Below, one piece after another: positions 2,995 to 63,840 of a DNA stretch of 64,000 nt. The notes below the pieces were generated by a model. It did not search any database and was not told the origin of the DNA. It was given only the letters and a program-made list of their open reading frames with translations. The stretch spans positions 571-64,570 of the forward strand of contig CAZNJW010000003.1 in NCBI GenBank assembly GCA_964573455.1. The letters run 5' to 3'. Within the stretch, counting starts at the first letter, position 1. Each line of letters opens with the position of its first letter. The DNA comes from an uncultured Anaeromyxobacteraceae bacterium. Lineage in GTDB: Bacteria > Myxococcota_A > UBA9042 > DTJE01. Both the position numbers and the translations under genes were made by a program.

Positions 2995-3035
2995 AGCACA
3001 ACAACGGGATTGGGCGGGAAAACGGAGAAATCCGG

Positions 3036-3106
<71 letters not shown>

Positions 3107-3216: not shown

Positions 3217-6200
3217 TCACTGGCAGAGGCCGGCCACGCAGGTTCCGGAGGCGCAGTCGGTTCCGTAGACGCAGTGCTTGCCGGCGATGCAACGGTTGCA
3301 GACCCGGCCACCGCAGTCGATGTCGGTCTCGGACTGATCCATGATCCTGTTCCAGCAGGAAATCACCACGGTGACGCCCTCGTAGGTGCCGAGTTCGGTG
3401 CCAATGGAGTTGGCCCCCGTCGCAGGACGTTTTCCGAGCGGAACGCTCGGCGCGAACTGGATGAATCCGGTTTCGGTCGAAACGGGGCCTTCGTATCCGG
3501 CGTTGCCGAACGACGGGGTCGCGTTCGTGATCTTGCAGCCCGCGCAGCAGCCACCAACATCACAGCAGTATCCTGACTGGCAGAACTGCGAGATGCAGTC
3601 GGAATCCTCGTTGCACGGCTGCTCGTTCGGCAGGTCAGCCACACACTCGGCGGTCGAGTAGGTCGGCGGCATCGGGTCGCAGTGGGCGTTCGCGTCGCAC
3701 ACCTCGTCCATTTCGACCGTGGTACCGGCGTCGTAGCACGTCGTCGGGCAAGCCGGGTCGATCTGGTCCACATCGCCGTTGCAGTACACAGGCAGGAAGT
3801 AACCGCAGTCATCGGAAACCTGGCCGAGGTCGTATACACAGGCCGAGTCTTCCGGTGCGTACTCGGAGCCGCACTGCGAGTCAATACAGGTCGCCAGTGT
3901 CTCGGTACCCTGACACGTCGAGTAATCGCTGCAGGAAGGCGGTGCCCAGTAACCACCGCGCGGCTCGACAACCGGGCAGTCGGTATTGCGGTTGCAGCAG
4001 TCGCCGAAGTCGCAGCAGAAATCGTTCTGGCAGTGTCCGATACCGCCAGGCAGCCACTGCTGGTTCAGACAGTCGATGTCCTGCTCGCACGGACCGCCGT
4101 TTGGCACGAGCGGGATGCAGATCGCGTTGGTCGGGTTGTTGTCATCCCAGTCGCACCTTGCGTCGTCGTCGCACTTGCTGTCATCCGGGACGCCGTCTGT
4201 CAGACACGAAGTGAGACACACGGTGCCACCACCATTCCACGGTTCAAGCCAGGTCGCTCCCGGGCAGGTGGACGTCGGTGAAATCGGACAGAGTGCCGGC
4301 AGATACGCGCCACAGTTGTCGGCGAGGGCGCCGCCACAACGGCAGTCGTCACGAACCAGCTGATCGCCGCACTTGTTGTCGACGCAGACCGGATCCTTTC
4401 TGTGTCCTTCACACACCAGGTCGCCCGTGATCGGGTCGGAGACGGTGTCGCAGGATGCCGGGGTCGTGTAGATGCCCGGGCAGGTCGCGGCGCCCTGCTC
4501 GTCGCTGGACGGGCAGCAGTCACCTTCGCTGCAGCAGAATCCGTTCTGGCTGTGCCCCGAGATGCAGTCCGAATCCTCGTTGGATGGAGCGCCGTTCGGC
4601 AGGTCGACCGTGCAGAACATGGCGCGCAACGACGGATCGGGATCCGGGTCCGTGGCAACGACCGGATCGCAGTGCGCATTCGCATCACAGTCGGTGTTGG
4701 AGGTGCAGTAGCTGAGGCAGTCCGGCTTGATCTGGACGGCCGGGGGCAGCGGGCCCTCGTCGCCGCAGAACATGGAATAGTAGAAACCGCACCTGTCGGA
4801 TTCGACCGTATCGTCGCACGCCGTGTCGTCCGGAACCTCGGTCTTGACACACTGGTTGTTGACACACCTGGCGTCCCAGCGAATGCCCTGACAGAAGTTG
4901 ATCGGGTTGAGCGGATCCGTCATGTCCGGGTCATTACAGATCGGTTCCTCGCTGTAGACGCCCGCGCCGACACGGTTACAAATCAGGTCCGCCTCCATCC
5001 AGGCCGGATCGATCCAGAGCAGGTTCGGGTCCTGGCCGTCCTCGGGTACGACCCACGGTTCGGTCGGACAGCAGTCGCCGCCGTCGCAGCAGAAACCGTT
5101 CTGGCAATGCTGGCTGACGCAGTCAAGGTCCTGCTCGCCAAGGATCAAGTCGTCGCAGTCCGCGCCGTTCTCAAGCAAGGTCTGAACGCGAAGCTCGAAC
5201 CTGAAGGGAGTGTACGCGAACATGCCGCTGTTGGTATCCACGCCGACGTAGTAGTCGCCCGGCTGGAGCTGGAGATCGACGACTGCCGGATTTGTATCGG
5301 TCGTCTCTGAACACCTGAGGGAACCGGCCGCGCAGGTCGCGCCCGCCGAATCCTTCAGGAACAGCACGAGACGGTTGCCAGGAACCGGCAGCAGCTTGAT
5401 GGTGACGCGCTTGGGCGTCAGAAGATTGAACTTGTAGAGGCGGTCGGGGCCTTCGAGACCGCCGCAGCCTGAGTCGTTGACGGAGTTGATCGCGCACTGG
5501 AGCGTGCCATCAACGAACACAGACGGGTTGACGTCCTGGTTGCCCAGGTCGATCGGCGTCTCGCAACGGCTGCCGAGATTCAGGGTCGGGTCATCCGAGC
5601 CCTTCATGTACATCGACCAGTCATGAATCGTGCCGGAGCTGCCGGAAACGACGTCGCAAATCTGGAGCGTCCAGACGCCGTCGATCTGTTCCCCGTTGAG
5701 AGCGCACATCGGCTGACCCGACGTCGAGATACCCGGGTAGGTAATCGGGAACGAAAGATCGAAGGTGTTGGCGAAGCCATCGTTATCGCCGCCGAGATTG
5801 TGCCACAGACGATGACGGGCACCCTGAGGATCGATCAGATCCATCTGAAGGTCTCCGACCGCCTCGTGGCTGAGCCTGACCTTGATCTCGATGTCCTTCA
5901 CGTAGGCGAAGCCGGTGCTGACCGGCAGTGTGATACTGGTGCATCCGTTGACGCCAACGCGCTCGTTGATCGGCAGGTCGACCGTTCCACTCGCCGCCTT
6001 GTAGCACATGCCGTCCGAGCAGGTCGGGTTGCAGCCGCCAAGCGGGTAGCCGTCAATGCCGCCCACGCAGGAGTCCTCGAAGCCGCAGTCATCGTCGCCG
6101 GCGTCAAACGGATGCTCGCCACCGCACGGGCCGTTGCAGTTCTGCATGCGTTCGTGCTCGCAGTACCCCTGGATGCAGAGGTCCTCGGTGCAGGCATTCG

Positions 6201-9200
6201 GCTCGTCGCTGCAGGGGGTGCCGTCCGGGAACGCTCCCCTGACGCAGAGGTGGCCGCCCCAGCCGACGTTCTGGCAGATACCTTCGTTGCAATCGTCGCC
6301 GGTGTCGGTGCAGTCGACCATCGTGCCAAAGCCGCACATGCCGTCGGTGCAAACGTCGTCCGAACAGCCGAGTCCATCGAACTCGCAGGGGGTGCCATTA
6401 TCGGCGTTCCATTCGGCGCAGGTGTCGGTCTGCTCGTCGCAGTAGCCCTCGACGCACGACGAACAGTAACCATCCGAGCAGTCGAAATCCGTCACGGCGC
6501 AGTCTCGTGCGGCACCGCCCAGACAGGTGCTGAGATCGTCCTCGCCAACCTGGCAGTAGTCCTGAATCGTGCAGAACTGACCATCCTCGCACGGGGTGTA
6601 GTTCAATGCGTTCTGCATCTTGCAGCTGCCGTCGAACGGATCGCAGACGTTGCGCCTGCATTCGATGCCGGGATCGTCGCACATGACCGGTCCGTCAGAC
6701 AGTTCGCACATCTTGTCGTCGTTGCAGATCCAGACGGAACCGTTGCAGAGATTGCCGTCATCGAGGCACGAGGAAGCAAGGCCGTCTCGACATTCGCAGA
6801 CAAGATCCGGGCCTGGCATGCACATGCCAGCGCTGCAGAAGTCGCCCTTGTTGCAGGTCTCGCCGTCGTCGCAGGTCGTGCCGTCTTCCGCCTGAACCGT
6901 GGTGCACTGATCCAGGTCCTCGGAGCAGAAGCCGACCATGCAGGTACCATTCATGTAGCTGCAGTCGACCGGATCGCCGCCCTGGCATGTGCCGGCCGAA
7001 CAGAAGTCGTCACCGGTGCAGAACAGGCCATCGTCACACGGGGCGCCGTTGGCCGAATTGACGACAGCACATTCGCCGGTATCTGCCTGGCACACGTTCG
7101 CCTGGCACGGATCGTTGCTGGGCTCGCACTGCTTCATCGAATGCACGCAGACCCCGCCGGTCGACACGTTCGTGCATGAATCGAGCGTGCACAGGTTGTT
7201 GTCGTCGCACTCCGAGTTACGGAAGCAACCGGCGCTGACGACGTAGATCGTGAAGTAAACGAGCTGACCGGTCATGCCGGTGACGTTGTCCCACACCTTC
7301 AAGGTCCAGTCGCCGGCCACCGGGAGGCGGCGGTAATCAATCATCTGGCCGGGACCAACAACGGGATCCCAGTCGTACACGTCGTGGAAGCCCGGGTTCG
7401 TTCCGCCCTTGGAGTCGCGCAGCCTGACGCACACGTCCTCGTGGCACAGTTCCGCGCGCAGGTCGCCCGCGGCTTCATGGATCGTGCGAATCTTGACCTT
7501 CACATTGGATACGTAGCCGGTAGCGTTGACGTGCAGTACCTTGGTGAGACCGGCCGGATCGTTATCGGGAATGTCGCTGGGCAGGTCGGTGATCCAGTCG
7601 TACTCGTAAGGCTGGCCCTCGATCGTGCGGCAGACGCACAGCGAATCGCCAGTGAGCGGGTCGACATCATTGATCGGGTCACAGACGCGATCCTCGGTCT
7701 CTGCAACGAGGCAGACCTCGTTGCGGAAACAGTCGTCGTGCGTGGAACAGGGTCCGCCACAGGCCTCGATGACCTCATTGATACACTGGCCGGTGGCAGG
7801 GTCGCAGGAGTCGACCGTGCAGGTCAGTCCGTCGTCGCAGCCCTTTGGCGTGAACACGCAGACTCCACCTTCGCAGGACGCGGTCTGACACAGGGAAGCG
7901 GGGCAATCCGCGACATCGTCGCAGGACACGTCGGCCAGTTCCGCGAACAGATGCCATTCCTCGAACTTACCGTTCGAAAGGGAAGGATCCGTGTCTTCGG
8001 CCACAACGGTCCACGTACCGACCGAGCCCTCGCCGTCGAATGCGGTCAGCGGCTCGGCCGAGGGAACGCCGATGTCGTAGGTTTCATAGATATTGGCCTT
8101 CGCGTCGGTGAAGCTGCTGTTACGCACGATCGCCGAGGTGCCCGACGGGCTGGTGACGGTCAGCTTCACGTCGCCACGGTACTCGTGGGCGACACCGATC
8201 TTGAAGTTGGAGTTCGCAATCGCGCCGTTGGCCGCCACATTGACCGCACATGACGCCATGACCGGAGCCGCGCCGAAGTCGGTCTGACAATCGGCGTCAA
8301 ACCTGAATCCGGGGATGTCGACACAGTAACCGACCGACTTGTCGCAGGCCTGGTTGATCCCGCAGGACAGGGTCCCATCGGGCCGGTACTTGTCGTTCTC
8401 GCAGGGGATGCAGTCCTGGACCTGAAGGTTGACGCACTGGCTGGCGTTACAGTAATCGGTCGTGCATACCTCGAAGTCCTGACAGTTTTCAACACTGGTG
8501 CAGGGCGGATAGCCGTTCTCGAGGAAGTTCAGATACATCGACATGAGCTGATTCGTGGTCATCGCACCGCTGTATACATAGGCACCGAACGGCAGGGACG
8601 CGCCGATGGTTCTGTAGACTCCACCCTCGATCGCGCCCTCGTAGGATACGGCCAGGGCAAACGGGTCGTTCGGGTTCGAATTGCGGAGGATTTCGCGGCC
8701 ACCTCCCTCGGAGACATGGCGCAGCTTGTCGATCCATGCGTTAACACCTGCGTCCTGGGCAACGGCGAACTCGGCACCGTACAGGAAGTTCTTGCCGGAG
8801 ACCGGACCCGCGACGCGAACGGTTCCGCCGTCCGAGGTGGCTTCCGTCTTGAAGTACGGATGCAACACCGTTTCCGGCTGTGAAAAGGCAGGCGTGTAGA
8901 AGAACTCGCCGCCTTCGAGGTAGACGCGGCCACCGGCGTCCAGGAAAAGGCGCAGGCGGGCGGCGTCCATCGGCGTCACCCTGGCGTAGCGGCCCTTCAC
9001 TCCGAGAACCGCAAAAACGCCGTCATATCTGGTCAGATCGGGAACCATCGCAAGGTTGGTGATAATCTGCGCCTTGCGACCGGAATCCTTGATCGCCTGC
9101 TTGATCATGACGGCGCTGGGGTCGTTCATGCCGTTGGGCGACCATACGATGTAGCCGTCCTCAAGCAGGACCGTCAGGTCGAATTTTGTCAGCGACTCGA

Positions 9201-11763
9201 ACGGCGAGTGCAGCGGGATGTTCGCTTCGGTACTGTATTCATCCTGGGACACCAGACCCATCCGGTAGGAGCCGGCGGTTTCCTCGTTGCAGGATGGCTT
9301 TATGTCGATACCGCAGTAGTAGTAACCGTTGACCGTCATTGGAACTCCGCAGACCAGCTGAACCATGCCGGGCAGCGTATCGCAGAATCCAGACTGGCCG
9401 ACATCCGGAGCGCCGGAAGTGAATACCGGCCGATCGAGCGGCTCGCTGTCCAGTCTGGAAAGCGGGTTTCCGTAGAAACCCCAGGTCTGGTTGCTGGCAT
9501 CCCGGTCGTAGTAGCACATGTACAGCCTGGTCCAGTCGCAGGATCCAACCGTGAGAGCGGGCATCTCGCCGTAATTGGCGGACTCGGCCACCAGGGTGCC
9601 GGTCTGGGTGTTGCAGACGGTGCCGTCCTGAGGACACCTGAAGGCCCTGGCCTTGACGAACTCGTTGCTGACACCGGCCGCGACCTTGACGTCATCGATC
9701 TGCCATGAATCGATCATGTAGGTGGTTCCCGGAGCCGTGTCGATCATGAAACCTATCTTCAGTGTGGGAGAGAACTTGATCGCGTCCGGGACCTCGGCCG
9801 ACATCAGGTCGTACTCGAGGTCATGATTGACCATCTCCTCCCAGACGAGGTATCCGGGATTGAACGAATTGTTCGCGCTGGCCACGACCTTCAGCCTGAC
9901 GTATTGACCGGGCGCCGCGTGCTTGTATGACATCCTCCACTGAACGGTGGTTTTCTTCAGTGTCTCGTTAAAGGTGTCCCGGGCGGCGGTCATGCCGTCG
10001 AGCTGCGGGGTGATGGCCACGCTCTTGACCACTATCGTGGGCAGCGGATCCCATGTGAAGGCCAGGTGTGTGTCGGGACCGAGTTCATCCACTTCACCGT
10101 TGAGCTTCCAGTGGGATACCGCGTTAGTCTGGAAATCCTGGAAGGTCCACCCGATTTCCTGGAAGGATCCGGTTCCGTCGAACGGCTGGATGTAGGGCAG
10201 ATCGACCTTGCAGTTCGGATTGACCGGGTGCGCGCACACACGGCGCCCTGAAATCGGTTCCAACTCGCAGCGTTCGAGCGTGCACGGATTGCCCTCGTCG
10301 GGGCAATCCGCGTGATCCTCGCAGCAATCGGAGGTGTTCCAGGAGTGACGGCAGCTGTTAAGGGCGCACCTGTCGATTGTGCAGATGTCGCCGTCGTCAC
10401 AGTCGTTATCCTGGGTGCAGCAGTCAGCCTGCATCTTTTCGTGCAGACACTGATGTCCCCAGCAGGAATCGTAGGTGCAGTAGTCACCGTCGTCACATTC
10501 GGCATTCAGGTTGCAGCAGTTTTCAACCGGCTCGCCGGCCGAACACAGATTGGTTGAAAGGTCACAGAAGTCCGGGGTGCAGAATTTCTTGTCGTCACAC
10601 TGGGCATTGGCGAACGCGTTGCGCTCGATTTCACTGGCCCAGGGAAGTCCCGTGACCGGATTGACGGATGCGGGCGCGTAGCAGCAACCAGGGTTGATGT
10701 TGTATGCCGAATACACGCAGCGGTTGTTCGTGCAGTAATCGGCATTGCACGGATTCTCGTCCAGACAATCCGAAACGTCGTGGCAGCAGCCGTCGATCTC
10801 GGTGTTGGTACACGTGAGCGTGTTCACGTTGCAGAAGTCCTGGGTGCAAGGCTCGGAGTCGTTACAATCGGCGTTCACCAGACAGCAACCGGGCACGCGG
10901 GGGTTCTCGCAGACGCCAGCCGAGCAGGCATCGTAGGTGCAGGCATTTCCGTCCAGACAAGTCGGATGATTCTGTTCGCGGTAGCCGTCGTTCCGGGCGC
11001 CGGGGGTTCCCTTGTCGCCGGAACCGAACACTGTGGAGGCAACTACGAAATCCAGGTCTCCCCACTCGGCGGGATCGGCAGGGAACTCTGGGAAGAACAA
11101 CGCTTCGTTCTCAAGCGAGTGATGCCTGAGACCGATCGCTGCCCCGGCCGGCGCCGATGTCGTATATCCCTGCATGGGACCGTACACCACCCTGTCGACC
11201 TCGACACCCTGCGGGTCAAGCAGCAGGACCGAGTCGCCGCCGTTGATCAAGGCGAAGTTCGTCAACTGGTAGGCGCAGGTGACGCCGCCGTTGGTGGACT
11301 GATTGGCGTTGCGGCACAGCACCAGGTAACCACCGGAGGGAATTACCAGTTCACCAACGATCTGGTGGACGCCGGGACCGTCTTCGGCGATGAACCAGCC
11401 CGCCAGATCGACCGGCGCGGAGGTCGGGTTGTACAGCTCAATCCATTCACCAGAGGCATCGCCGACCGCGACCGAGTCGATCAACAATTCGTTGATAACG
11501 ACATGATTGACCACAGGCTCGCAGGTCCTGGCTTCACGTGGCACGAGCTGGCGATCCTCGAGAGGCGCCGACTCTTCCGCGCGAACGGTTTCGGGACCCT
11601 TCGTCTCGGGCGCGCCCAGTTCGGACACGCCGGCATCGGTTGCAGTCGTCGCTGTCATCGCGCCGACGACGGCGTGATTGTCAACGCCGTTTTCCGAACA
11701 ACCGGCGATGGCCCCGGCCACAAAAACGGCCAGAACCGCAAGACTGATGGGATGGAGCTTCAT
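3217..11763 (-). CDS. Giant (2,848 aa) cysteine-dense secreted lipoprotein. Mosaic of a lamin-tail (LTD)-like domain, Cys-knot repeat blocks, a MAM/jelly-roll-like domain, three proprotein-convertase-type P-domains, a PPC-like domain and a repeated C-terminal knot region.
   Basis: Single uninterrupted ORF 3217..11811. Start placed at ATG 11763 (AGGAGG upstream), which gives MKLHPISLAVLAVFVAGAIAGC (signal peptide plus lipobox). Domain motifs read from the translation are mapped in the findings. Confidence 0.9.
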   Translation of the reverse strand: MKLHPISLAVLAVFVAGAIAGCSENGVDNHAVVGAMTATTATDAGVSELGAPETKGPETVRAEESAPLEDRQLVPREARTCEPVVNHVVINELLIDSVAVGDASGEWIELYNPTSAPVDLAGWFIAEDGPGVHQIVGELVIPSGGYLVLCRNANQSTNGGVTCAYQLTNFALINGGDSVLLLDPQGVEVDRVVYGPMQGYTTSAPAGAAIGLRHHSLENEALFFPEFPADPAEWGDLDFVVASTVFGSGDKGTPGARNDGYREQNHPTCLDGNACTYDACSAGVCENPRVPGCCLVNADCNDSEPCTQDFCNVNTLTCTNTEIDGCCHDVSDCLDENPCNADYCTNNRCVYSAYNINPGCCYAPASVNPVTGLPWASEIERNAFANAQCDDKKFCTPDFCDLSTNLCSAGEPVENCCNLNAECDDGDYCTYDSCWGHQCLHEKMQADCCTQDNDCDDGDICTIDRCALNSCRHSWNTSDCCEDHADCPDEGNPCTLERCELEPISGRRVCAHPVNPNCKVDLPYIQPFDGTGSFQEIGWTFQDFQTNAVSHWKLNGEVDELGPDTHLAFTWDPLPTIVVKSVAITPQLDGMTAARDTFNETLKKTTVQWRMSYKHAAPGQYVRLKVVASANNSFNPGYLVWEEMVNHDLEYDLMSAEVPDAIKFSPTLKIGFMIDTAPGTTYMIDSWQIDDVKVAAGVSNEFVKARAFRCPQDGTVCNTQTGTLVAESANYGEMPALTVGSCDWTRLYMCYYDRDASNQTWGFYGNPLSRLDSEPLDRPVFTSGAPDVGQSGFCDTLPGMVQLVCGVPMTVNGYYYCGIDIKPSCNEETAGSYRMGLVSQDEYSTEANIPLHSPFESLTKFDLTVLLEDGYIVWSPNGMNDPSAVMIKQAIKDSGRKAQIITNLAMVPDLTRYDGVFAVLGVKGRYARVTPMDAARLRLFLDAGGRVYLEGGEFFYTPAFSQPETVLHPYFKTEATSDGGTVRVAGPVSGKNFLYGAEFAVAQDAGVNAWIDKLRHVSEGGGREILRNSNPNDPFALAVSYEGAIEGGVYRTIGASLPFGAYVYSGAMTTNQLMSMYLNFLENGYPPCTSVENCQDFEVCTTDYCNASQCVNLQVQDCIPCENDKYRPDGTLSCGINQACDKSVGYCVDIPGFRFDADCQTDFGAAPVMASCAVNVAANGAIANSNFKIGVAHEYRGDVKLTVTSPSGTSAIVRNSSFTDAKANIYETYDIGVPSAEPLTAFDGEGSVGTWTVVAEDTDPSLSNGKFEEWHLFAELADVSCDDVADCPASLCQTASCEGGVCVFTPKGCDDGLTCTVDSCDPATGQCINEVIEACGGPCSTHDDCFRNEVCLVAETEDRVCDPINDVDPLTGDSLCVCRTIEGQPYEYDWITDLPSDIPDNDPAGLTKVLHVNATGYVSNVKVKIRTIHEAAGDLRAELCHEDVCVRLRDSKGGTNPGFHDVYDWDPVVGPGQMIDYRRLPVAGDWTLKVWDNVTGMTGQLVYFTIYVVSAGCFRNSECDDNNLCTLDSCTNVSTGGVCVHSMKQCEPSNDPCQANVCQADTGECAVVNSANGAPCDDGLFCTGDDFCSAGTCQGGDPVDCSYMNGTCMVGFCSEDLDQCTTVQAEDGTTCDDGETCNKGDFCSAGMCMPGPDLVCECRDGLASSCLDDGNLCNGSVWICNDDKMCELSDGPVMCDDPGIECRRNVCDPFDGSCKMQNALNYTPCEDGQFCTIQDYCQVGEDDLSTCLGGAARDCAVTDFDCSDGYCSSCVEGYCDEQTDTCAEWNADNGTPCEFDGLGCSDDVCTDGMCGFGTMVDCTDTGDDCNEGICQNVGWGGHLCVRGAFPDGTPCSDEPNACTEDLCIQGYCEHERMQNCNGPCGGEHPFDAGDDDCGFEDSCVGGIDGYPLGGCNPTCSDGMCYKAASGTVDLPINERVGVNGCTSITLPVSTGFAYVKDIEIKVRLSHEAVGDLQMDLIDPQGARHRLWHNLGGDNDGFANTFDLSFPITYPGISTSGQPMCALNGEQIDGVWTLQICDVVSGSSGTIHDWSMYMKGSDDPTLNLGSRCETPIDLGNQDVNPSVFVDGTLQCAINSVNDSGCGGLEGPDRLYKFNLLTPKRVTIKLLPVPGNRLVLFLKDSAGATCAAGSLRCSETTDTNPAVVDLQLQPGDYYVGVDTNSGMFAYTPFRFELRVQTLLENGADCDDLILGEQDLDCVSQHCQNGFCCDGGDCCPTEPWVVPEDGQDPNLLWIDPAWMEADLICNRVGAGVYSEEPICNDPDMTDPLNPINFCQGIRWDARCVNNQCVKTEVPDDTACDDTVESDRCGFYYSMFCGDEGPLPPAVQIKPDCLSYCTSNTDCDANAHCDPVVATDPDPDPSLRAMFCTVDLPNGAPSNEDSDCISGHSQNGFCCSEGDCCPSSDEQGAATCPGIYTTPASCDTVSDPITGDLVCEGHRKDPVCVDNKCGDQLVRDDCRCGGALADNCGAYLPALCPISPTSTCPGATWLEPWNGGGTVCLTSCLTDGVPDDSKCDDDARCDWDDNNPTNAICIPLVPNGGPCEQDIDCLNQQWLPGGIGHCQNDFCCDFGDCCNRNTDCPVVEPRGGYWAPPSCSDYSTCQGTETLATCIDSQCGSEYAPEDSACVYDLGQVSDDCGYFLPVYCNGDVDQIDPACPTTCYDAGTTVEMDEVCDANAHCDPMPPTYSTAECVADLPNEQPCNEDSDCISQFCQSGYCCDVGGCCAGCKITNATPSFGNAGYEGPVSTETGFIQFAPSVPLGKRPATGANSIGTELGTYEGVTVVISCWNRIMDQSETDIDCGGRVCNRCIAGKHCVYGTDCASGTCVAGLCQ

Positions 11764-12172
11764 AGCGCCTCCTTGACCGGTGATGACACCTGCCACGCAA
11801 ACATTGCACACCCGCCGTGACCAAGATCAGGACGACCCGGCAAAAAGCCAATCCTTCCGGCCGGTTACCCAGCAACGGACACACTCGGATCACGGAGGAA
11901 ATAATCCACCGGGTTTCTTTTGCAGCAGGAACCGTGCCACAACACACCCGGATTTCTCAACTGCCTTTCTTACGCGCCGCAGCCACGCCCACGAATCACT
12001 GTCTGACAAGCCGAGGCGTCAGCGAAAGAGGTTCACCACGCGGACAGAGTCAGCACACATTCGCCGTCCGCCCCTTTCCCTGTTAAGAAAAGTACGGGTA
12101 TACTACCGGCCTTATGGCTGGTTCCCGCCGGTTTTGGGCCGCCATGTCGTTTCCGACTCCCTGGAGGTGATC

Positions 12173-16527: not shown

Positions 16528-18440
16528 ATATCTATCCTGACCGTGCCGAAGGCGGAAAAGCCGGGCAGCGGCTGCTGAAGGAAGTCGACGGCGTCGGTCT
16601 TGTTGGTGACGTTCATGAAATCCAGGCTGAGGGTCAGCGAAGGAATTGGCTTGACCAGCAACCTCACGTCCAGGCGGAACCTGTCTTCTTCCATCACCGA
16701 CTCGAACGCGTCAAGGTAGAACCCGGACTGCCACGAAGGCTGCAGCAGGAGTTTGAACGGACCGCCCGAGAAGGCCAGTTCGCCGATCACCGAGTGTTCC
16801 GGCCTGGCCGGAAGCCACATGCCCGTGGACGAGACCGTGGCGTCAAGCCATGTATAGGCGACGGATGCCCTGAACCACCTGTACTCCGCGGCAGCGGACG
16901 CCTCGACTCCCCTGATAACGGCCCGTCCAGAGTTGGAGGCGCGAATGACGAACGCGGAGACAGGCGCAAACGTGATCATGTTGAAACCGTAGTTCTCGAA
17001 ATACGAGGCCTTCAGATTCCACCACGATCCGCGTCCGGCCTCGATCCCGAAGTCCCAGGCAAGCGAGTCCTCAGGCTCCAGATCCGGGTTGCCCTGGACG
17101 AATCCGCTGTCGAAATAGAGTTCCTCGAAGGTTGGCAGTCTGAACGAGCGCCCGACATTCGCGGACAGACGCACGAGAGAATGCGGCTGGTACCATATTC
17201 CGAGGGACGGGACCGGCCTGAAACCGAAACCGGAGTCGTATTCGAGTCTCAGATCGAAAGCGACCTGCCAGTTGTCCTCCGGTTCTCCGGCAACGAAACC
17301 GACGATCCCGGCCAGGGTTCCCCTGCTTGGCCAGTGGTTGGCCTGACCGGCCCTGCGGACGCTGCCGCGGTCGTATCCTCCGTCAGCCCCGAAACGGAAC
17401 GCGAAGCGTTTCCAGGGTGCGGCAAGCGTGGAAAAGCGCGCGCCGAAACCGCCTGACATCAGCATCGTGTCCTGTTCAGCTCCCATGTTCGGATCGGAGT
17501 CACGGTATCCGAACGCCAGGAACCTGCCGTAAAGATCCGCCGAAGTGGCACCGCGCCGGCCGAACAGCCGTGGTCCCCGCCATCCGACACCTGCGACGAC
17601 CCTCGTGTCATCACCGAGTGCGGTCACAGACGGAAACTGCTCCATGCCGGCGATCTCGCGGTCCACCCTGAAGACCTCGACCAGCGCCTGAAAACTGTGA
17701 CCATCAAGCGGCTCCGACTCAACCTTCAGCATGCCCTCGAAAGCGGTGGACGCATTGTGCAGACGATCCCTTCGCGCCCCGTTCGAATCGGTGAATCGGA
17801 ACCCGCCACCGGAGTGGGAGAACCCGGCCGCGGCCATCACGCCGGTCACCGAGGCCTCATCCGCGAACACATGCGCGTGCGACGCCTTCAATCGAACGGT
17901 CGAGAATGATCCGCCCGACAACAACGCCGTGGTTCTGTCTCCGTTGTCCAGGATGGCGGGAGTCCTGGCGTCGATTGTACCGCCGGCCGCGTCGCTTCCC
18001 CTGACCGCTCCCAGTCCGCCCCTGGACACGTCCAGCGCGTCGAGCGGAAGAAGACCGAGTGAGTTCAGGTCGGCCCCGCCCATGAAAACCGAGTTCAAGG
18101 GAATACCGTCCAGCGCCAGCAGCGTGGACCTGGGGTCAGCCCCCCGGATGGATATCGAAACCGCCTGACCGGGGCCACCGTTGTCGCGCACCATCACCGC
18201 CGGGGCCGTTTTGACCGCCGCGGACGGGCCGGCAGGCGATTCGATGGCGGCAGGATCCGATACCGTCGTGGTCCCGGGACTCTCCCTCGCGAGGGGGTCG
18301 CCGCTCACAGGATCGCCAAAGACATCGATCCCGGGAACATCAATCATGACAGGTTGTTCCTGCGCCGAAGCGGACCGGATCAGTAACAGACAGACCAAAG
18401 CCGGAAAAGACAGGATGAAGCGGAAGATACCTGCAGACAT
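16524..18440 (-). CDS. btuB: TonB-dependent outer-membrane receptor. BtuB-like, judged from the riboswitch and operon context.
   Basis: ATG 18440 gives the signal peptide MSAGIFRFILSFPALVCLLLIRSASA. Plug motif GQAVSISIRGADPRSTLLALDGIPLNS, followed by a long beta-barrel with alternating-residue strands. Confidence 0.8.
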   Translation of the reverse strand: MSAGIFRFILSFPALVCLLLIRSASAQEQPVMIDVPGIDVFGDPVSGDPLARESPGTTTVSDPAAIESPAGPSAAVKTAPAVMVRDNGGPGQAVSISIRGADPRSTLLALDGIPLNSVFMGGADLNSLGLLPLDALDVSRGGLGAVRGSDAAGGTIDARTPAILDNGDRTTALLSGGSFSTVRLKASHAHVFADEASVTGVMAAAGFSHSGGGFRFTDSNGARRDRLHNASTAFEGMLKVESEPLDGHSFQALVEVFRVDREIAGMEQFPSVTALGDDTRVVAGVGWRGPRLFGRRGATSADLYGRFLAFGYRDSDPNMGAEQDTMLMSGGFGARFSTLAAPWKRFAFRFGADGGYDRGSVRRAGQANHWPSRGTLAGIVGFVAGEPEDNWQVAFDLRLEYDSGFGFRPVPSLGIWYQPHSLVRLSANVGRSFRLPTFEELYFDSGFVQGNPDLEPEDSLAWDFGIEAGRGSWWNLKASYFENYGFNMITFAPVSAFVIRASNSGRAVIRGVEASAAAEYRWFRASVAYTWLDATVSSTGMWLPARPEHSVIGELAFSGGPFKLLLQPSWQSGFYLDAFESVMEEDRFRLDVRLLVKPIPSLTLSLDFMNVTNKTDAVDFLQQPLPGFSAFGTVRIDI

Positions 18441-18469
18441 GCCCCTTGTCCCCGAGGAGTACAGTCCAT

Positions 18470-18665
18470 CGTTTCCGGGCAGGTCTCCTGGCTTGGGGGG
18501 AACGGCCGTGGCCGAAAGTTCTTCCGCCTTCCCGGCAGGTGCCAGTGGCATTCCGGAAGAACCCTGGAAAATCCTCCCCCGTCACAGTGGCGGGACCGCG
18601 CGGGAATCACACCCGCTTCCCTCTCCGGGACGCATCGCGTCCACCCGGAAAGAACGCAGCAACGG
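18470..18665 (-). promoter_or_regulatory. Cobalamin (B12) riboswitch in the 5' leader of the btuB-like operon
   Basis: The minus-strand read contains the conserved core AGGGAAGCGGGTGTGATTCCCGCGCGGTCCCGCCACTGTGAC. It also contains ...GCCACTGGCACCTGCCGGGAAGGC... and a B12 box AAGCCAGGAGACCTGCCCGG (about 18474..18496), ending about 35 nt before the ATG. Confidence 0.85.
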
Positions 18666-18727
18666 TCTCACAGACGAACGATTATTTCAAGGAGGAGAGA
18701 AAACGGGCCTGGGACGGGTGCCTGGAA

Positions 18728-19561
18728 CTACGGGCAGGGGCAGGCCTGGTTGCACGCGACCGCGACCGGCGAACCACCGACCGGGCAGTTGTTGATCTCG
18801 CACTTGTTATTGTAGTCATTGCCGTCAACACCGCAGAGCGGGGCGGAGGCCATTCCCTCGCACGGCTCGCAAACGATGATGCATTCACCGAAATTGGAGA
18901 ACATCGTGCGCTCGATCGTGACGCAGCCCTTCGCTTTCTTCAGCAGGCAGAGGTCGTCGTATTCGGTGACGCCGTCGATGTCGCAGACCTTGCCGCAATT
19001 CTGAATCGGCTGAGACTGGGCATCACACTCGTCCACAAGGTCGCAGGGACATTCATCGCAACTGGTACGGCGAAGCAGGAAGTTGGTTTCACCGGTGATC
19101 AGGCACTCGATCTCGCCTCCGCATCCGGGGCAGTCGGGCGCGTCGGCGCAAAGTTCACACGCGGCGCATGAGGCGCTGTTGTAAGTGACCTCGTCGATGC
19201 CGCACACCGGTTCGTTGACGGTGGTATCGCAGGGGCACATCGGCGGCACGTACGTGTCGATACCGGTGTCCTCGACAACATCCGTCTGGACGTCGGCATC
19301 GTCATCTACATCGGTCTGAACGTCTTCGTCCGTGTCAGGAACCGCAGTGTCCTTGCCATCATCGCGGACGGTGCTGTCCTTTTCACCAGGATCGCTGAGG
19401 TTATCCGGAACGAGGGTGTCCTGGACGTCTTCGGGGACAAACGTATCTTCGACATTCGTATCATTGCCGGTATCCAGCGGGGGTGGATTCCCGTCACCAC
19501 AGGCCATGGCAAAAGACGCCGCGGCAGCCATTACGACGAAAACGCTTGTTTTTCTGGACAT
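18728..19561 (-). CDS. Secreted lipoprotein with an acidic D/T/V-rich linker and about three Kazal-type (serine-protease-inhibitor-like) Cys domains
   Basis: ATG 19561 (GGAGGG upstream) gives MSRKTSVFVVMAAAASFAMAC. Kazal signatures are CDTTVNEPVCGIDEVTYNSASCAAC and CEGMASAPLCGVDGNDYNNKCEINNC. A degenerate middle copy reads CGKVCDIDGVTEYDDLCLLKKAKGC. Confidence 0.8.
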   Translation of the reverse strand: MSRKTSVFVVMAAAASFAMACGDGNPPPLDTGNDTNVEDTFVPEDVQDTLVPDNLSDPGEKDSTVRDDGKDTAVPDTDEDVQTDVDDDADVQTDVVEDTGIDTYVPPMCPCDTTVNEPVCGIDEVTYNSASCAACELCADAPDCPGCGGEIECLITGETNFLLRRTSCDECPCDLVDECDAQSQPIQNCGKVCDIDGVTEYDDLCLLKKAKGCVTIERTMFSNFGECIIVCEPCEGMASAPLCGVDGNDYNNKCEINNCPVGGSPVAVACNQACPCP

Positions 19562-19659
19562 CAAATCCCTCCGGATACGTTGTTCACAGCAGTCGAGAGC
19601 ACCCGGAAACCCGGGGTTATCCATGGAATGCCGACAAACATTTTAATGTAATTGGCTTT

Positions 19660-20607
19660 TCAGGGCAAGAAGACTCGAATGGTCGTCTGAAGATAGAATC
19701 CGCCCGCGTCCCAGACATCGTGGGCATAGCCGACATCGACAGCCACGATCTTCGACACGTAGCCGATTCCCAGCGATACCCGCATCTCGTCAACCTGGAC
19801 TCCGTCGTTGCCGGTGTGACCGACACGATCCCAGTTGAACCCGGCACGCAGCGCGACCACGTTCTGGACCATCACCTCAAGGCCGCCCATCAGGCTGGGC
19901 GTGGCGACACCGAAGGTCGAAAAGTCCACATCGCAGTCCAGTCCGAAATTGACGATCGAATGGGAAATTCCGATTCCGACGCCCAGCTTTCTAGGGGCCA
20001 GAGCCCAGGTCCGCCTGCCGAACCCGGTCGAGTTCTTGATCTCGACGTTCGCGAGGTTTCCGGACTGGGCCGCGTTCTGGATCAGGTTCTGGCCGGTGAC
20101 CCCGACGTAGAAGATGTTCATGATCCCGAGCAGCAAACCGAGATCCATGTCGGCATACCAGCTTGAATCGGTCACGTCGGAACGTACGTTCATCACCCTC
20201 ATGGTCAGGCCCGCGCCGATGAAGATGACTTCGTTCGCCCACTTCGTCGACAGAGCTGAGCGGATGTCGTGGGTCATGGTGTCGTCGCCCTCGTCGGCAT
20301 ACCCGAATACATACGACAATCCACCGGATACCCACTTGTTAGTGGTCGAATCGACGAACGAGGCCGACGCCTGGTGCCACTGAGCCCAATGCGAATAAGC
20401 GTACCCCATGTTCACGGAGTACTGGTTGATCTGCGGAATGGTCGCGGGATTGAAGGAAAGGCCGTCGGCACCCATCCCGACAGCGCGCACCGCGTCGCCC
20501 ATCGACAGCGAACGCGCAGTCGAACTATCGGTCCTGGCAACGGCGGTCAGGGGAACAACGGACAGACCGGCCAAAAACAGGGCCGTGATCACGCAAAGGC
20601 GTTTCAT
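19660..20607 (-). CDS. Outer-membrane beta-barrel protein of unknown family. Its N-terminal GMGxA...NPA motif resembles FadL/PorV-like proteins.
   Basis: ATG 20607 gives the signal peptide MKRLCVITALFLAGLSVVPLTAVA, then SLSMGDAVRAVGMGADGLSFNPA. Amphipathic beta-strand periodicity runs throughout. Confidence 0.6.
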   Translation of the reverse strand: MKRLCVITALFLAGLSVVPLTAVARTDSSTARSLSMGDAVRAVGMGADGLSFNPATIPQINQYSVNMGYAYSHWAQWHQASASFVDSTTNKWVSGGLSYVFGYADEGDDTMTHDIRSALSTKWANEVIFIGAGLTMRVMNVRSDVTDSSWYADMDLGLLLGIMNIFYVGVTGQNLIQNAAQSGNLANVEIKNSTGFGRRTWALAPRKLGVGIGISHSIVNFGLDCDVDFSTFGVATPSLMGGLEVMVQNVVALRAGFNWDRVGHTGNDGVQVDEMRVSLGIGYVSKIVAVDVGYAHDVWDAGGFYLQTTIRVFLP

Positions 20608-20816
20608 TTCGACAACCGCCGGTTCCAGATGGTGAAGACCTGCCATCCCGCGATCGGATAGATGCGGGAACGATTTGTCTAACGGTATTGATGCAGGCGT
20701 GAACTGTCAAGAAATCGGCAGGATTGTAGACAGATTACAGTCGCCGGGATATGGTCTTGCGACCATGGTGGTGCTAGGCTGAAAGGCCTTGATGAAACCG
20801 CATCCGGAGGATTTCG

Positions 20817-21536
20817 ATGAACGATAAACGCATAGTGGTCGTAATCCCGACCTACAACGAGGCGGAAAACGTCAGGAACATCGTTCCGCAGGTGCTGGCG
20901 GCGCTCCCGAACGCCGACGTGCTGATCGTGGACGACTCCTCGCCGGACGGCACCGGCGATATCGTCAAGGAGATGGCTCTCGGGGAACCACGCATAGGAC
21001 TCCTGTCGCGCCGCGGCAAGGAAGGTCTCGGCAAGGCGTACATCGCCGGGTTCAAACGCTGCCTTCAGGAAGGCTACGACATCATCTTCCAGATGGACTG
21101 CGACTTCTCGCACCAGCCGTCCCACCTGACGGAGTTCATGGCGGCGATTCAGGACAATGACTTCGTGATCGGCTCCAGGTACATGCCCGGCGGACGGACC
21201 ACCGACTGGGGATTCCACCGCAAGTTTCTGTCCAGGGGCGGCAACCTGTATGCCAGGATCATTCTCGGTGTGAAGGTCTCCGATCTGACGGGCGGGTTCA
21301 AGTGCTGGCGGCGCGAAGTCCTTGAAGGTATCGACCTGGACACCATCGCGGCCGCGGGATACGCATTCCAGATGGAGATGACATTCAGGGCGCTGAAAAA
21401 GGGATTCCGTCTCAAACAGATCCCGATCGTCTTCCCGGATCGCACGAAGGGTGAATCAAAGCTGGTCGGCGGGATCTTCTGGGAAAGCCTGGGTATTCCC
21501 TTCCGGATCAGATTCGGCAGCCGGAAGGCATCGTGA
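20817..21536 (+). CDS. Polyprenol-phosphate mannosyl/glycosyl-transferase (GT2, Dpm1/Ppm1-like)
   Basis: IVVVIPTYNEAENV...ADVLIVDDSSPDGTGDIV...GLGKAYIAGF...MDCDFSHQP are classic GT2 polyprenyl-P-sugar synthase motifs. GGAGGA RBS. Confidence 0.85.
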   Translation: MNDKRIVVVIPTYNEAENVRNIVPQVLAALPNADVLIVDDSSPDGTGDIVKEMALGEPRIGLLSRRGKEGLGKAYIAGFKRCLQEGYDIIFQMDCDFSHQPSHLTEFMAAIQDNDFVIGSRYMPGGRTTDWGFHRKFLSRGGNLYARIILGVKVSDLTGGFKCWRREVLEGIDLDTIAAAGYAFQMEMTFRALKKGFRLKQIPIVFPDRTKGESKLVGGIFWESLGIPFRIRFGSRKAS

Positions 21537-21537
21537 A

Positions 21538-22716
21538 CTAGCTGATCAGGATCAATTCTTCCTGCTGGGGTCCGCTGACCTCCACCGAACCGTCCTGCCT
21601 GATGAAAACGTCGATCTCGGATCTGACGGCCATCCGTCCCGGCAGATAGATTCCCGGCTCGACCGAGAAACAGATTCCGGGCACCAGCCTGCGCAGATCC
21701 CGAGTTTCGAGGTTGTCGATGTTGACACCGTTTCCATGCACGTTGACGCCGATTGAGTGACCTGTCCTGTGGATGAAAAACTCACCGTAACCAGCGGCCT
21801 GGACTACCGACCTGCACGCGTCGTCGACTTCGTAGCCGAAACACTGCTGATGGCGCGCGAACCGCTCGCGGACGAACTCCACCGCGGCCTTGCGGGCGTC
21901 CCGGACCACGTTGAAGATCTTGAGGTACTCATCCGGAGGATTGGTTCCCACGAAACCGACCCATGTGATGTCGTAGAAGATGGCGCCGGGCCGTGCCAGC
22001 TTCGCCCACAGGTCGATCAGTACCGTGTCGCCCTCGCGAATCACTACCGTATTTTCAGGCGTGGGTTCGAAATGCGGGTCGGACGGATGTCCGTTGACCC
22101 CGACAATCGGGAATTCGCCCATGCAGTCCAGGCCCTGTTCCTCGAACCTGCGGATAATGAAACGCTGGACGTCGTATTCGGTCAGTCCCTTTCCATTCTT
22201 GACTGAATCGCCGATCAAGGTGAACGCCTCGTCCTTGATAGCGTGAATCAACCTGCCGGCCTCGACGTGCGTCTGGTAACCAGCGTCATCTATCACTGCC
22301 TCGAAGACCTGAACCAGGTCAGCCGATGATCCGATGCGGGCGCCGGCGGCCCTGACCAGGTCAATCATGCCCGCGTCCACGAGACTGACGTATGGAATGG
22401 CGTCGTCCGGGGAGTACTGCATGGCGACGTTCTTTCCCCGCAGCATGCGTTCCAGTTCATCGGCGAGGTCGCGCCAGGAAAGATAGGTGCGTTTCTCGCC
22501 GGGAAGCGAATCCAGGCGGGACGGTTCGACCTTGCTGACCAGGCGAATTGGCTCGCCTGAGGATGGGACGAGGTAGAACCAGCGTCTCGACGTGAACTTC
22601 TCGAAGTCGAGCCCCAGGATGCGGTACGCGATCGCGTCCCTGTTGTTGAAGTCACAGAACAGCCAGCCGTCGAACCCGGCCTCGCCCACCGCTTTCTGAA
22701 GCTTGCGGATGTCCAT
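21538..22716 (-). CDS. M24-family metallopeptidase (Xaa-Pro aminopeptidase/dipeptidase-like)
   Basis: Pita-bread fold motifs YDITWVGF, HRTGHSIGVNVHG and FSVEPGIYLPG. GGAGG RBS. Confidence 0.85.
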   Translation of the reverse strand: MDIRKLQKAVGEAGFDGWLFCDFNNRDAIAYRILGLDFEKFTSRRWFYLVPSSGEPIRLVSKVEPSRLDSLPGEKRTYLSWRDLADELERMLRGKNVAMQYSPDDAIPYVSLVDAGMIDLVRAAGARIGSSADLVQVFEAVIDDAGYQTHVEAGRLIHAIKDEAFTLIGDSVKNGKGLTEYDVQRFIIRRFEEQGLDCMGEFPIVGVNGHPSDPHFEPTPENTVVIREGDTVLIDLWAKLARPGAIFYDITWVGFVGTNPPDEYLKIFNVVRDARKAAVEFVRERFARHQQCFGYEVDDACRSVVQAAGYGEFFIHRTGHSIGVNVHGNGVNIDNLETRDLRRLVPGICFSVEPGIYLPGRMAVRSEIDVFIRQDGSVEVSGPQQEELILIS

Positions 22717-22754
22717 CGATACCTCCAGATACCATCAGGAAAAACGAAAAACGA

Positions 22755-23612
22755 TTATCGATCGACCTGCCCGCTTCCACAAGCGTATGGAACGCCGGCC
22801 AGTTCACCGATGAAACGGGCGAGCCCGCCCTTCTCGAGGATAAACCCGCGATCCGTCAGGCCATGGTACTCGACCCAGCCATCGCGCGGGAGCCATCGCT
22901 CGCTGGTCGCGAATCCAGGCAGACGATGCCCGTGCCAGGTGCCCTGGACCGATACCCTGACCTGCAGGCCGTATCTTGGAGGAATCAAGGTCGGGAAGGT
23001 TGATACCTCGACCCGGGCACCTTCCATCCAGCCGCTGGCGGAACCACATTCGAAGACCGTGCGCGGAGGACTGACCTCGAGGCCGGCGTCCGCCAGGGCG
23101 GCAATTTCGGTTACGAGATTCTCTCTGGGCTTGAACACGAACCGGTACCAGTAGGAACGCGAATCCGGCAGCACGACCAGGCTGGATCCGAAGAAAGCGA
23201 ACGACGACATCACCGACACGAAAATCGTTGTAAGTGGAACAGGCGCCAGAAAGCTGAGATCCACCTTCTGTTCGGCCTTCAACATCACCACGATCAACAG
23301 GCCTGTCTGAATCAGACTGAGGATCCCGGCCCAGCCCCTGAAACGGTCGCCCCAGACGATGGTGCCCGCGATGGTCACCAGGGCTATCATGTGCGGAAAG
23401 GCGAGCCACGAAAACCGATCCAGAGCGATCGATATTCCACTGGTCTCGACCCAGGAATGGCCCCAGTCGGCAAAAAGCAGGGCCACGACCAGAATCTGCA
23501 TTCCAGCAGCCAGGGCATAGAGCCAGTCCGCGGCCCGGCGACCGAACCTGACCACCCATACCAATCCGGCTATTCCAATGGCCAGACTGGTTATTCCGAA
23601 TACCAGTTCCAT
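22755..23612 (-). CDS. Hypothetical membrane protein (about 5-6 N-terminal TM helices plus a soluble ~120-aa C-terminal domain)
   Basis: ORF 22755..23615 (TTG). The adjacent ATG 23612 is preferred. No recognisable family motif. Confidence 0.55.
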   Translation of the reverse strand: MELVFGITSLAIGIAGLVWVVRFGRRAADWLYALAAGMQILVVALLFADWGHSWVETSGISIALDRFSWLAFPHMIALVTIAGTIVWGDRFRGWAGILSLIQTGLLIVVMLKAEQKVDLSFLAPVPLTTIFVSVMSSFAFFGSSLVVLPDSRSYWYRFVFKPRENLVTEIAALADAGLEVSPPRTVFECGSASGWMEGARVEVSTFPTLIPPRYGLQVRVSVQGTWHGHRLPGFATSERWLPRDGWVEYHGLTDRGFILEKGGLARFIGELAGVPYACGSGQVDR

Positions 23613-23648
23613 CAAGTCACCGGATTCAATGAAACGGAACGGTCAACC

Positions 23649-63761: not shown

Positions 63762-63810
63762 TTTTCCTTCTCCTGACAAGACTTGGATCAAAAAATCGCA
63801 AAGCCACGGC

Positions 63811-63840
63811 ATTATAAGGGATCGGAATGGAATAGTTCAA
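63811..63840 (-). promoter_or_regulatory. Strong candidate sigma70 promoter TTGAAC-18 nt-TATAAT for the Cys-rich lipoprotein/lgt operon
   Basis: The reverse complement of 63835..63840 is TTGAAC and of 63811..63816 is TATAAT, about 50 nt upstream of the ATG. Confidence 0.5.

Follow-up and report, generated by a model that had tools for sequence, protein, structure and literature searches.

The window analysed here is a stretch of 64,000 nucleotides from an uncultured Anaeromyxobacteraceae bacterium (contig CAZNJW010000003.1), and our subject is a gene in it that encodes a giant, cysteine-dense lipoprotein. The gene is a single unbroken open reading frame (ORF) at 3217-11763 on the minus strand, and its 8,547 nt make up 13.4% of the window. 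The mechanical ORF extends over 3217..11811 with a GTG start, and the ATG start at 11763 gives a protein of 2,848 amino acids (aa). Upstream of this ATG the sequence reads caAGGAGGcgctATG / caAGGAGGcgct, with AGGAGG 4 nt before the start codon.

The N-terminus, MKLHPISLAVLAVFVAGAIAGC, is a signal peptide closed by a lipobox, and a 39%-identical homologue opens alike (MKLHPIW...LFALGC). We accept the start at 11763 and the length of 2,848 aa because the N-terminus of this homologue matches. The lipobox pattern [LVI][ASTVI][GAS]C is found as MKLHPISLAVLAVFVAGAIAG followed by C22, and lipobox-type N-termini recur in the homologues P0002 (TVAGC), P0022 (FALGC) and P0008 (WVAGC). The +2 residue, next to the lipobox Cys22, is Ser. 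An earlier description made from the letters of the stretch, here called the sequence-only reading, had reported one uninterrupted ORF with AGGAGG-ATG, the lipobox AIAGC and 2,848 aa, and both the sequence and the homologue N-terminus bear it out.

The mature protein has a mass of 302.6 kDa and a pI of 4.05, with 429 Asp and Glu versus 142 Lys and Arg. Its Cys number 227 (8.0%; 176 TGC and 51 TGT codons) against an average of 1.85% in the remaining long ORFs of the window, and they fall into blocks at exactly the positions where the sequence-only reading had placed them. No paralogue of the gene was found within the window by tblastn. The features of the gene and its surroundings are collected in Table 1.

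Table 1. Features of the giant lipoprotein gene, in protein order, and of its surroundings in the window
Feature	Coordinates	Strand	Basis
Signal peptide and lipobox, aa 1-22 (...AIAG/C22)	11698..11763	-	sequence; lipobox kept in homologues
Lamin tail domain (LTD), aa 86-195	11179..11508	-	PF00932, 64.1 bits vs cutoff 34.3, E 1.8e-17
Cys block 1, aa 266-518, seven C-[TN]-x-[DE]-x-C units of Dicty_CTDC type	10210..10968	-	motifs, PF00526
Jelly-roll domain, aa 519-700, CBM/MAM-like by fold only	9664..10209	-	AlphaFold2 (AF2) model, Foldseek
Mostly-beta linker domain, aa 701-858, with conserved Cys	9190..9663	-	DSSP of model
Amidotransferase-like alpha/beta domain, aa 859-1088, with E950-G951-G952-(D/E)953	8500..9189	-	AF2, Foldseek, family alignment
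Cys block 2, aa 1089-1185	8209..8499	-	Cys density, kept in homologues
P-domain 1, aa 1186-1275	7939..8208	-	PF01483, aa 1188-1272, 45.1 bits
Cys block 3, aa 1276-1400	7564..7938	-	Cys density, homologue alignment
P-domain 2, aa 1401-1508, borderline	7240..7563	-	PF01483, aa 1419-1506, 21.9 bits vs cutoff 21
Cys block 4, aa 1509-1945, long Cys-rich spacer	5929..7239	-	6-8 Cys per 50 aa
P-domain 3, aa 1946-2055	5599..5928	-	PF01483, best-scoring stretch aa 1956-2051
PPC-like segment, aa 2056-2195	5179..5598	-	PF04151, under threshold
Tandem Cys-rich units U1-U3, aa 2196-2407, 2408-2565, 2566-2730	3574..5178	-	motif positions, unit alignment
C-terminal region, aa 2731-2848: fourth G-Y-C-C motif, Cys-free stretch, terminal 8-Cys knot	3220..3573	-	sequence, motif positions
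Stop codon of the giant gene	3217-3219	-	sequence
tRNA-Cys(GCA)	3034-3106	-	111 nt past the giant-gene stop, same strand
Small divergent lipoprotein gene, 165 aa	12173..12670	+	most constant neighbour; tblastn
NHL/beta-propeller-repeat protein, 394 aa	15343-16527	-	between BtuB-like receptor and BtuF-like gene
Cobalamin riboswitch RF00174	18461-18663	-	114 bits, E 8e-28; directly upstream of TonB-dependent receptor gene
Cys-rich ORF, 298 aa, 29 Cys	18728-19624	-	sub-threshold Kazal_1 match; upstream of riboswitch
Cys-rich ORF, 596 aa, 80 Cys (13%)	62022-63812	-	ORF composition

The LTD is present in all 8 homologues that were aligned with the giant protein. In Cys block 1 the C-x-x-D-x-C units lie at aa 275, 306, 339, 395, 429, 461 and 494. 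The Dicty_CTDC family (PF00526) passes its cutoff of 27 bits on the isolated aa 260-520 with 32.2 bits, and on the whole protein scores 25.9 bits, slightly under that cutoff, with its best stretch at aa 1519-1542. PF01483 matches the whole protein with 96.2 bits in two stretches, the better-scoring being P-domain 3, while the scores of P-domains 1 and 2 in Table 1 are those of the isolated segments, and the segment of the borderline P-domain 2 has complete coverage across all aligned homologues. The LTD, the repeated C-x-x-D-x-C block and the three P-domains, all named by the sequence-only reading, are upheld here.

The same holds for its knot modules, which are the three tandem units of ~160-210 aa, delimited by G-F/Y-C-C-x-x-G-D-C-C motifs and each opened by G-F-C-C-x-x-G-D-C-C. 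These units, U1-U3, have neither a Pfam match nor a PDB sequence match. The PPC-like label, on the other hand, is supported only below threshold. PF04151 gives 20.8-20.9 bits against a cutoff of 25.9 (E about 7e-4) and reaches E<=0.01 in only 2 of 9 sequences, the giant protein and its 8 homologues, which leaves a similarity under the threshold and no firm support for family membership.

Catalytic domains were found in the giant protein by none of Pfam, NCBIfam and PDB sequence search, as the sequence-only reading had held. The NCBIfam scan of the whole protein gave no match at all. Peptidase_S8 has no match at E<=0.1 across the whole protein, no subtilase catalytic domain was matched in the PDB, and the Por_Secre_tail/CHU_C sorting domain of the type IX secretion system (T9SS) is absent by the Pfam and NCBIfam scans. 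In the PDB sequence searches with aa 516-1095, 1096-2190 and 2191-2847, the sole return was a weak match (E 0.048) of P-domain 3 to an extracellular serine protease of Aeromonas sobria (chain 3hjr/3wqb), in its C-terminal part at residues 457-558.

The region that lies between Cys blocks 1 and 2 was modelled by AF2 on aa 516-1100 aligned with 14 homologues, and the model has a pLDDT of 89.4 and a pTM of 0.84. Because this model is confident, it suggests that the jelly roll, the beta domain and the alpha/beta domain pack as a single unit. Foldseek against the PDB matches the jelly roll to meprin, which carries a MAM domain, CBM27/16/22/61, the K3 adhesin of Kgp (Lys-gingipain), Fbs1 and reelin. 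The mostly-beta linker domain has no Pfam match in the giant protein or the homologues, and is the core segment with the lowest conservation across the latter.

The MAM/jelly-roll-like label of the sequence-only reading is right as to the fold, with meprin and the CBMs among the structural matches, but MAM is supported at that level only. Membership in the MAM family (PF00629) was considered and rejected, since aa 515-705 have no match even at E<=10, and the jelly-roll segments from the giant protein and its 8 homologues give nothing at E<=0.01.

The alpha/beta domain was modelled separately from a 35-sequence alignment, with a pLDDT of 94.6 and a pTM of 0.92 for aa 859-1088. Its Foldseek matches are GH42 domain B, the IFT52 N-terminal (GIFT) domain, the ThuA-like 4pxy, TrpG and PabA, and the probability is 1.00 to TrpG (1qdl_B), PabA domains and GH42 domain B. 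The GH42 beta-galactosidases are the best fold matches over ~250 columns (TMq about 0.57), and the IFT52 N-terminal domain aligns with a TM of 0.62/0.65 and an rmsd of 4.5. The identity to these structural matches is 10-14%. As modelled, the domain is of the class-I glutamine-amidotransferase-like (GIFT / GH42-domain-B-like) fold, and the alpha/beta segment left unassigned by the sequence-only reading is a real domain. A VWA-type adhesin fold was rejected for it, as no VWA is among the top 50 Foldseek matches, which are dominated by amidotransferase-like folds.

The Cys-His-Glu triad of amidotransferases is absent because aa 851-1050 contain no Cys and no Cys, His or Ser is conserved across the 35 family members. 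The single Cys of the domain sits at its C-terminal border. Instead, the motif E-G-G-(D/E) is invariant or nearly so over the 35 divergent members, and is E950-G951-G952-D/E953 in the giant protein. GIFT domains (IFT52 N-terminus, GldG, OST48/Wbp1), GH42 domain B and ThuA-like proteins share the predicted fold, here without a candidate catalytic Cys. The alpha/beta family differs from them in its low identity, its extracellular setting and its own invariant motif.

This domain belongs to a much wider family. Word-indexed homologue searches gave only 5 and 4 matches, and it was the exhaustive profile search that revealed the family. At E<=1e-3 this search gave 1,171 representatives, which are clusters at 50% identity, and at E<=1e-10 it gave 526. 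The domain has no Pfam or NCBIfam model, and this holds even for short relatives that consist mainly of it. Pfam gave no match on the window domain and 10 short relatives, hence no sequence membership in GIFT/ABC_transp_aux. Its carriers include gingipain-like and other secreted peptidases in Bacteroidota, Calditrichia and Gemmatimonadota, and giant lipoproteins in Myxococcota.

Among 50 shorter relatives, T9SS sorting tails occur in 20 proteins and Peptidase_C25 with its propeptide and an Ig domain in 10-12, along with PKD domains and dockerin. Single cases carry C1, S8, C11, C13 or M6 peptidases or a peptidyl-arginine deiminase. In the C25 proteins the catalytic domain lies at ~aa 250-607 and the alpha/beta domain at ~aa 940-1120, about 300 residues downstream, and in gingipain-like proteins the alpha/beta domain precedes the PKD and T9SS sorting domains. 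Because it is separate from the C25 catalytic domain in the same proteins, it is an accessory module rather than a protease subdomain, and a degenerate gingipain (C25) catalytic subdomain was rejected. The similarity to the domain of these T9SS peptidases is at E 1e-20 or better, yet their propeptide, catalytic domain, PKD and Por_Secre_tail are all missing from the giant lipoprotein.

The giant protein itself is not a one-off. The exact protein is found in public collections, and its cluster at >=90% identity has 18 members, including at least six full-length copies of 2,848 aa, which stem from independent NCBI, ENA, JGI and Logan assemblies. An assembly chimera or a frameshift is unlikely and was rejected because these independent assemblies agree on 2,848 aa and the homologues are colinear. 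The database names in the cluster do not go beyond 'hypothetical', 'lamin tail domain-containing' and 'proprotein convertase P-domain-containing'. In the metagenome-assembled genome (MAG) GCA_035358395.1 (94-96% identical), the giant gene is called as a separate 126-aa gene and, where the contig ends, a partial protein of 461 aa (L001 9522-11382), a case that shows piecemeal fragmentation and naming ('lamin tail domain-containing protein, partial').

More distant homologues are colinear too. P0014 (2,881 aa) is 46% identical over 2,936 columns, P0022 (3,030 aa) is 39% identical, and P0008, P0013 and P0019 are 38-41% identical and colinear end to end. In the nine-sequence alignment the segments from LTD to U3 are all present in the 8 homologues, except the C-terminus missing from the partial P0013, and the C-terminal region has the poorest coverage. 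The amidotransferase-like domain ranks among the best-conserved segments. Cys is conserved at 91.9% of its positions versus 12-54% for other residues, and 202 of the 227 Cys are retained in at least 7 of the 8 homologues. As the Cys positions are so strongly conserved, structural disulfides in an oxidising, extracytoplasmic site fit.

A scan of species-representative genomes found the full core, which comprises the CTDC repeats and the three modelled domains, only in MAGs of Myxococcota, which bear the labels Anaeromyxobacteraceae, Myxococcales or 'Deltaproteobacteria'. The nearest match to the core module is 93% identical and comes from a sludge-digester bin, and some genomes have two or three paralogous giant-gene loci. 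Judged by these sequences, the LTD-CTDC-core-3xP-Cys-unit layout is a conserved, uncharacterised Myxococcota family, although the sequence-only reading had been unable to match the combination to any. The domain order is kept in 8 homologues and in many Myxococcota MAGs. None of the homologues carries a characterised function, names aside; there is likewise no catalytic match and no sign of a frameshift or chimera from the independent assemblies.

The core also occurs alone, as complete lipoproteins of ~830 aa (P0002, 839 aa, and P0004). Beside P0002 (L002 1618-3078) lie a gene for a separate 486-aa LTD protein and a GH79-like gene. The LTD and the core can thus be separate neighbouring genes, since L002 encodes them apart.

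As to the genomic neighbourhood, tblastn finds the 165-aa lipoprotein gene next to the giant gene in loci of about ten other genomes. Its product has the lipobox VMSGC, an Ala/Pro/Glu-rich linker and a C-terminal domain of ~70 aa (...YCAQKKxEMxKILxIYKxxGFxTPxEF...), conserved in the window, L003 and L004, and matches no Pfam family. Upstream and on the same strand as the giant gene are a TonB-dependent receptor gene, an NHL/beta-propeller gene and BtuF-, BtuC- and BtuD-like genes. This cluster is a corrinoid-type uptake operon, marked by the cobalamin riboswitch, which was confirmed in four further loci (L004, L008, L010 and L018).

The arrangement of the giant gene, the small lipoprotein gene and the uptake operon recurs in about ten further genomes with core identity down to 41-48%, whereas the genes downstream of the giant gene vary between lineages with the shared arrangement. 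The linkage to the operon is absent in the P0020, P0074 and L022 loci. The giant gene is outside the riboswitch control because the small lipoprotein gene, on the opposite strand, lies between it and the operon. A functional link of the giant gene to corrinoid uptake is possible but weak.

The tRNA-Cys gene follows the giant gene also in L007-L010 (core identity 66-93%) but not in more distant loci, and a promoter-like site is found before it at 3152-3123. Its place beside a gene of 227 Cys codons may be coincidence or local tRNA-Cys supply. Of the Cys-rich ORFs in the window, that of 596 aa neither matches a Pfam family nor detectably resembles the giant protein. Cys-rich proteins with weak Kazal matches adjoin the giant gene in L004 and L006 too. 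L004, which is the locus of P0008, has another very large gene (17863-25810, at least 2,709 aa) on the same strand directly after the giant homologue, with no Pfam match on record.

With somewhat better than even confidence, we take the giant lipoprotein to be an outer-membrane-anchored, acidic, disulfide-locked and non-enzymatic binding scaffold or adhesin, the core of which binds a glycan-like or polymeric ligand. The surface-tethered binding scaffold proposed in the sequence-only reading fits the lipobox and the domain evidence, while the outer-membrane or surface location, the type of ligand and the role of the acidic motif are what we infer. A non-enzymatic scaffold is favoured because the parts that can be identified are all modules of the binding, spacer or accessory kind. 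The P-domains, for example, are known as accessory domains.

In this scaffold, the protein would be exported, lipidated at Cys22 and anchored, most likely in the outer membrane, with the LTD located beside the membrane anchor. The core, with its CTDC repeats, CBM-like jelly roll, beta domain and amidotransferase-like domain, would be the primary ligand-binding unit, and its ligand, probably a glycan or another polymer, would be held around the invariant acidic E-G-G-(D/E) site. Further binding or spacing surfaces would come from beta-rich modules, the three P-domains and the PPC-like segment. About 113 possible disulfides in the Cys blocks may make these blocks rigid, protease-resistant spacers that keep the modules off the cell. 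GIFT domains have been proposed as sugar binders (PMC7226087).

Several points weigh against this scaffold. No fold family can be assigned to about 27% of the protein, made up of U1-U3, the mid beta domain and the C-terminus. The sequence by itself would be compatible also with an inner-membrane or periplasm-facing location. Moreover, E-G-G-(D/E) follows a strand at the apparent nucleophile-elbow position, as placed from the strand order of the model, and could mark catalysis.

The closest known layout is that of the planctomycete anchoring protein of the proposed planctosome, a protein of 2,210 aa in which repeats separate several P-domains and which also has an LTD and a signal peptide (Andrei et al. 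2019, PMC6461901). Both proteins are giant and secreted, carry a signal at the N-terminus and an LTD close to it, have P-domains with repeat spacers and no catalytic domain, and are interpreted as surface scaffolds. However, the planctosome anchor has thrombospondin type 3 repeats and cohesin, neither of which is in the giant lipoprotein, and the likeness drawn here is one of layout. The giant lipoprotein alone has the lipobox, the CTDC-type repeats, the jelly-roll/beta/amidotransferase-like core and the three large Cys units. With the kexin/furin convertases, from which its family takes the database names on P-domains and subtilisin-like convertases, it has the P-domain in common, as three pass PF01483, but it is without their Peptidase_S8.

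The size, acidity and disulfide richness of the protein would also suit a structural surface-matrix or lattice protein, in which the amidotransferase-like domain oligomerises and the Cys-rich repeats form a cross-linked extracellular coat with no foreign ligand. GH42 domain B is a trimerisation domain, and the GH42 beta-galactosidases head the fold matches of the alpha/beta domain over their ~250 columns. The CTDC repeats, which here pass their threshold, occur in slime-mould matrix and spore-coat proteins. The Dictyostelium proteins share the C-T-x-D-x-C repeat type (PF00526), but they are of a eukaryotic matrix and share no further domain, the likeness being drawn from the Pfam family description. 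Paralogues exist in some genomes, and the second very large ORF (2,709+ aa) of L004 is directly downstream. We nevertheless consider a lattice unlikely, as a single lipid-anchored copy is atypical of S-layer proteins and the T9SS peptidases carry the alpha/beta domain as one accessory module. Quite improbable, and below the lattice, is a corrinoid (B12) scavenging accessory, in which the giant and the small divergent lipoproteins would capture cobamides or material that carries them, or relay these to TonB-dependent uptake as a distant analogue of BtuG/BtuH. The giant gene is near the TonB receptor, the NHL propeller and the BtuF/C/D-like cluster preceded by the riboswitch, an arrangement that recurs where the core module is only ~41-48% identical and the downstream neighbours are not conserved, with the riboswitch also in L004, L008, L010 and L018. 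Bacteroides surface lipoproteins are known to catch B12 (PMC6143338), and BtuG/BtuH are similarly lipoproteins encoded near riboswitch-controlled BtuB-type uptake genes. But no sequence or fold similarity between BtuG/BtuH and the giant protein was found, and the Pfam scan of the latter gave no known B12-binding domain. Giant gene and operon are kept apart by the intervening opposite-strand gene, three loci (P0020, P0074 and L022) lack the linkage, the P0002 neighbourhood differs, and the synteny is explicable by common descent inside one bacterial order. By position, the BtuG-like candidate would be not the giant protein but the 394-aa NHL/beta-propeller protein, which recalls the beta-propeller B12-capturing lipoprotein of Bacteroides.

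An unrecognised enzyme would make the amidotransferase-like domain a new hydrolase family acting via Glu950 and Asp/Glu953, and the giant protein a tethered enzyme. The near invariance of E-G-G-(D/E) across 35 divergent members speaks for it, and so does the fold class, which contains true enzymes, with TrpG and PabA among the Foldseek matches. The amidotransferase-like fold is used by the S51 and S66 peptidases as well. We regard such an enzyme as very unlikely, because no Cys in the domain is a candidate nucleophile and neither Ser nor His is conserved there, its nearest structural matches (GH42 domain B, IFT52 and ThuA-like) are non-catalytic or of unknown activity, and the domain is attached to proteins already bearing diverse catalytic domains, as accessory modules are. 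A shade less probable still is a planctosome-like scaffold at which secreted peptidases would dock, where the LTD would anchor and the P-domains would recruit or activate surface proteases. It draws on the planctomycete protein of LTD and multiple P-domains, proposed as such an anchor (PMC6461901), on the frequent fusion of the alpha/beta family to peptidases, and on Cys-rich proteins that recur near the giant gene and whose Kazal-like Pfam matches are weak and for the most part below threshold. The planctosome is itself only a hypothesis, though, Pfam finds no cohesin or dockerin domain in the giant protein, and no peptidase gene is among the conserved neighbours. Finally, the core could be an unrecognised extracellular device for ligand capture or catalysis, forming with the small lipoprotein and the corrinoid operon a cobamide or nutrient relay outside Bacteroidota, which we rate as improbable as the corrinoid scavenging accessory. 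If it were true, the alpha/beta domain of T9SS peptidases in other phyla would share an undescribed binding or enzymatic function.

The name 'subtilisin-like proprotein convertase family protein' is misleading for the giant family, which has no protease domain, and the JGI name of the homologue P0074 overstates what its domains show. Apart from the alpha/beta domain family, the giant protein is an ordinary large modular adhesin-like surface protein. The most useful new result is to have defined a family of amidotransferase-like extracellular domains, which is large, lacks a database model and has a confident structural model and a sharp conserved motif. Naming and testing the domain would help to annotate thousands of 'hypothetical' surface proteins. 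For the organism, the non-enzymatic scaffold favoured here means that 8.5 kb are spent on a protein that probably shapes the contact of the cell with particles, polymers or other cells.

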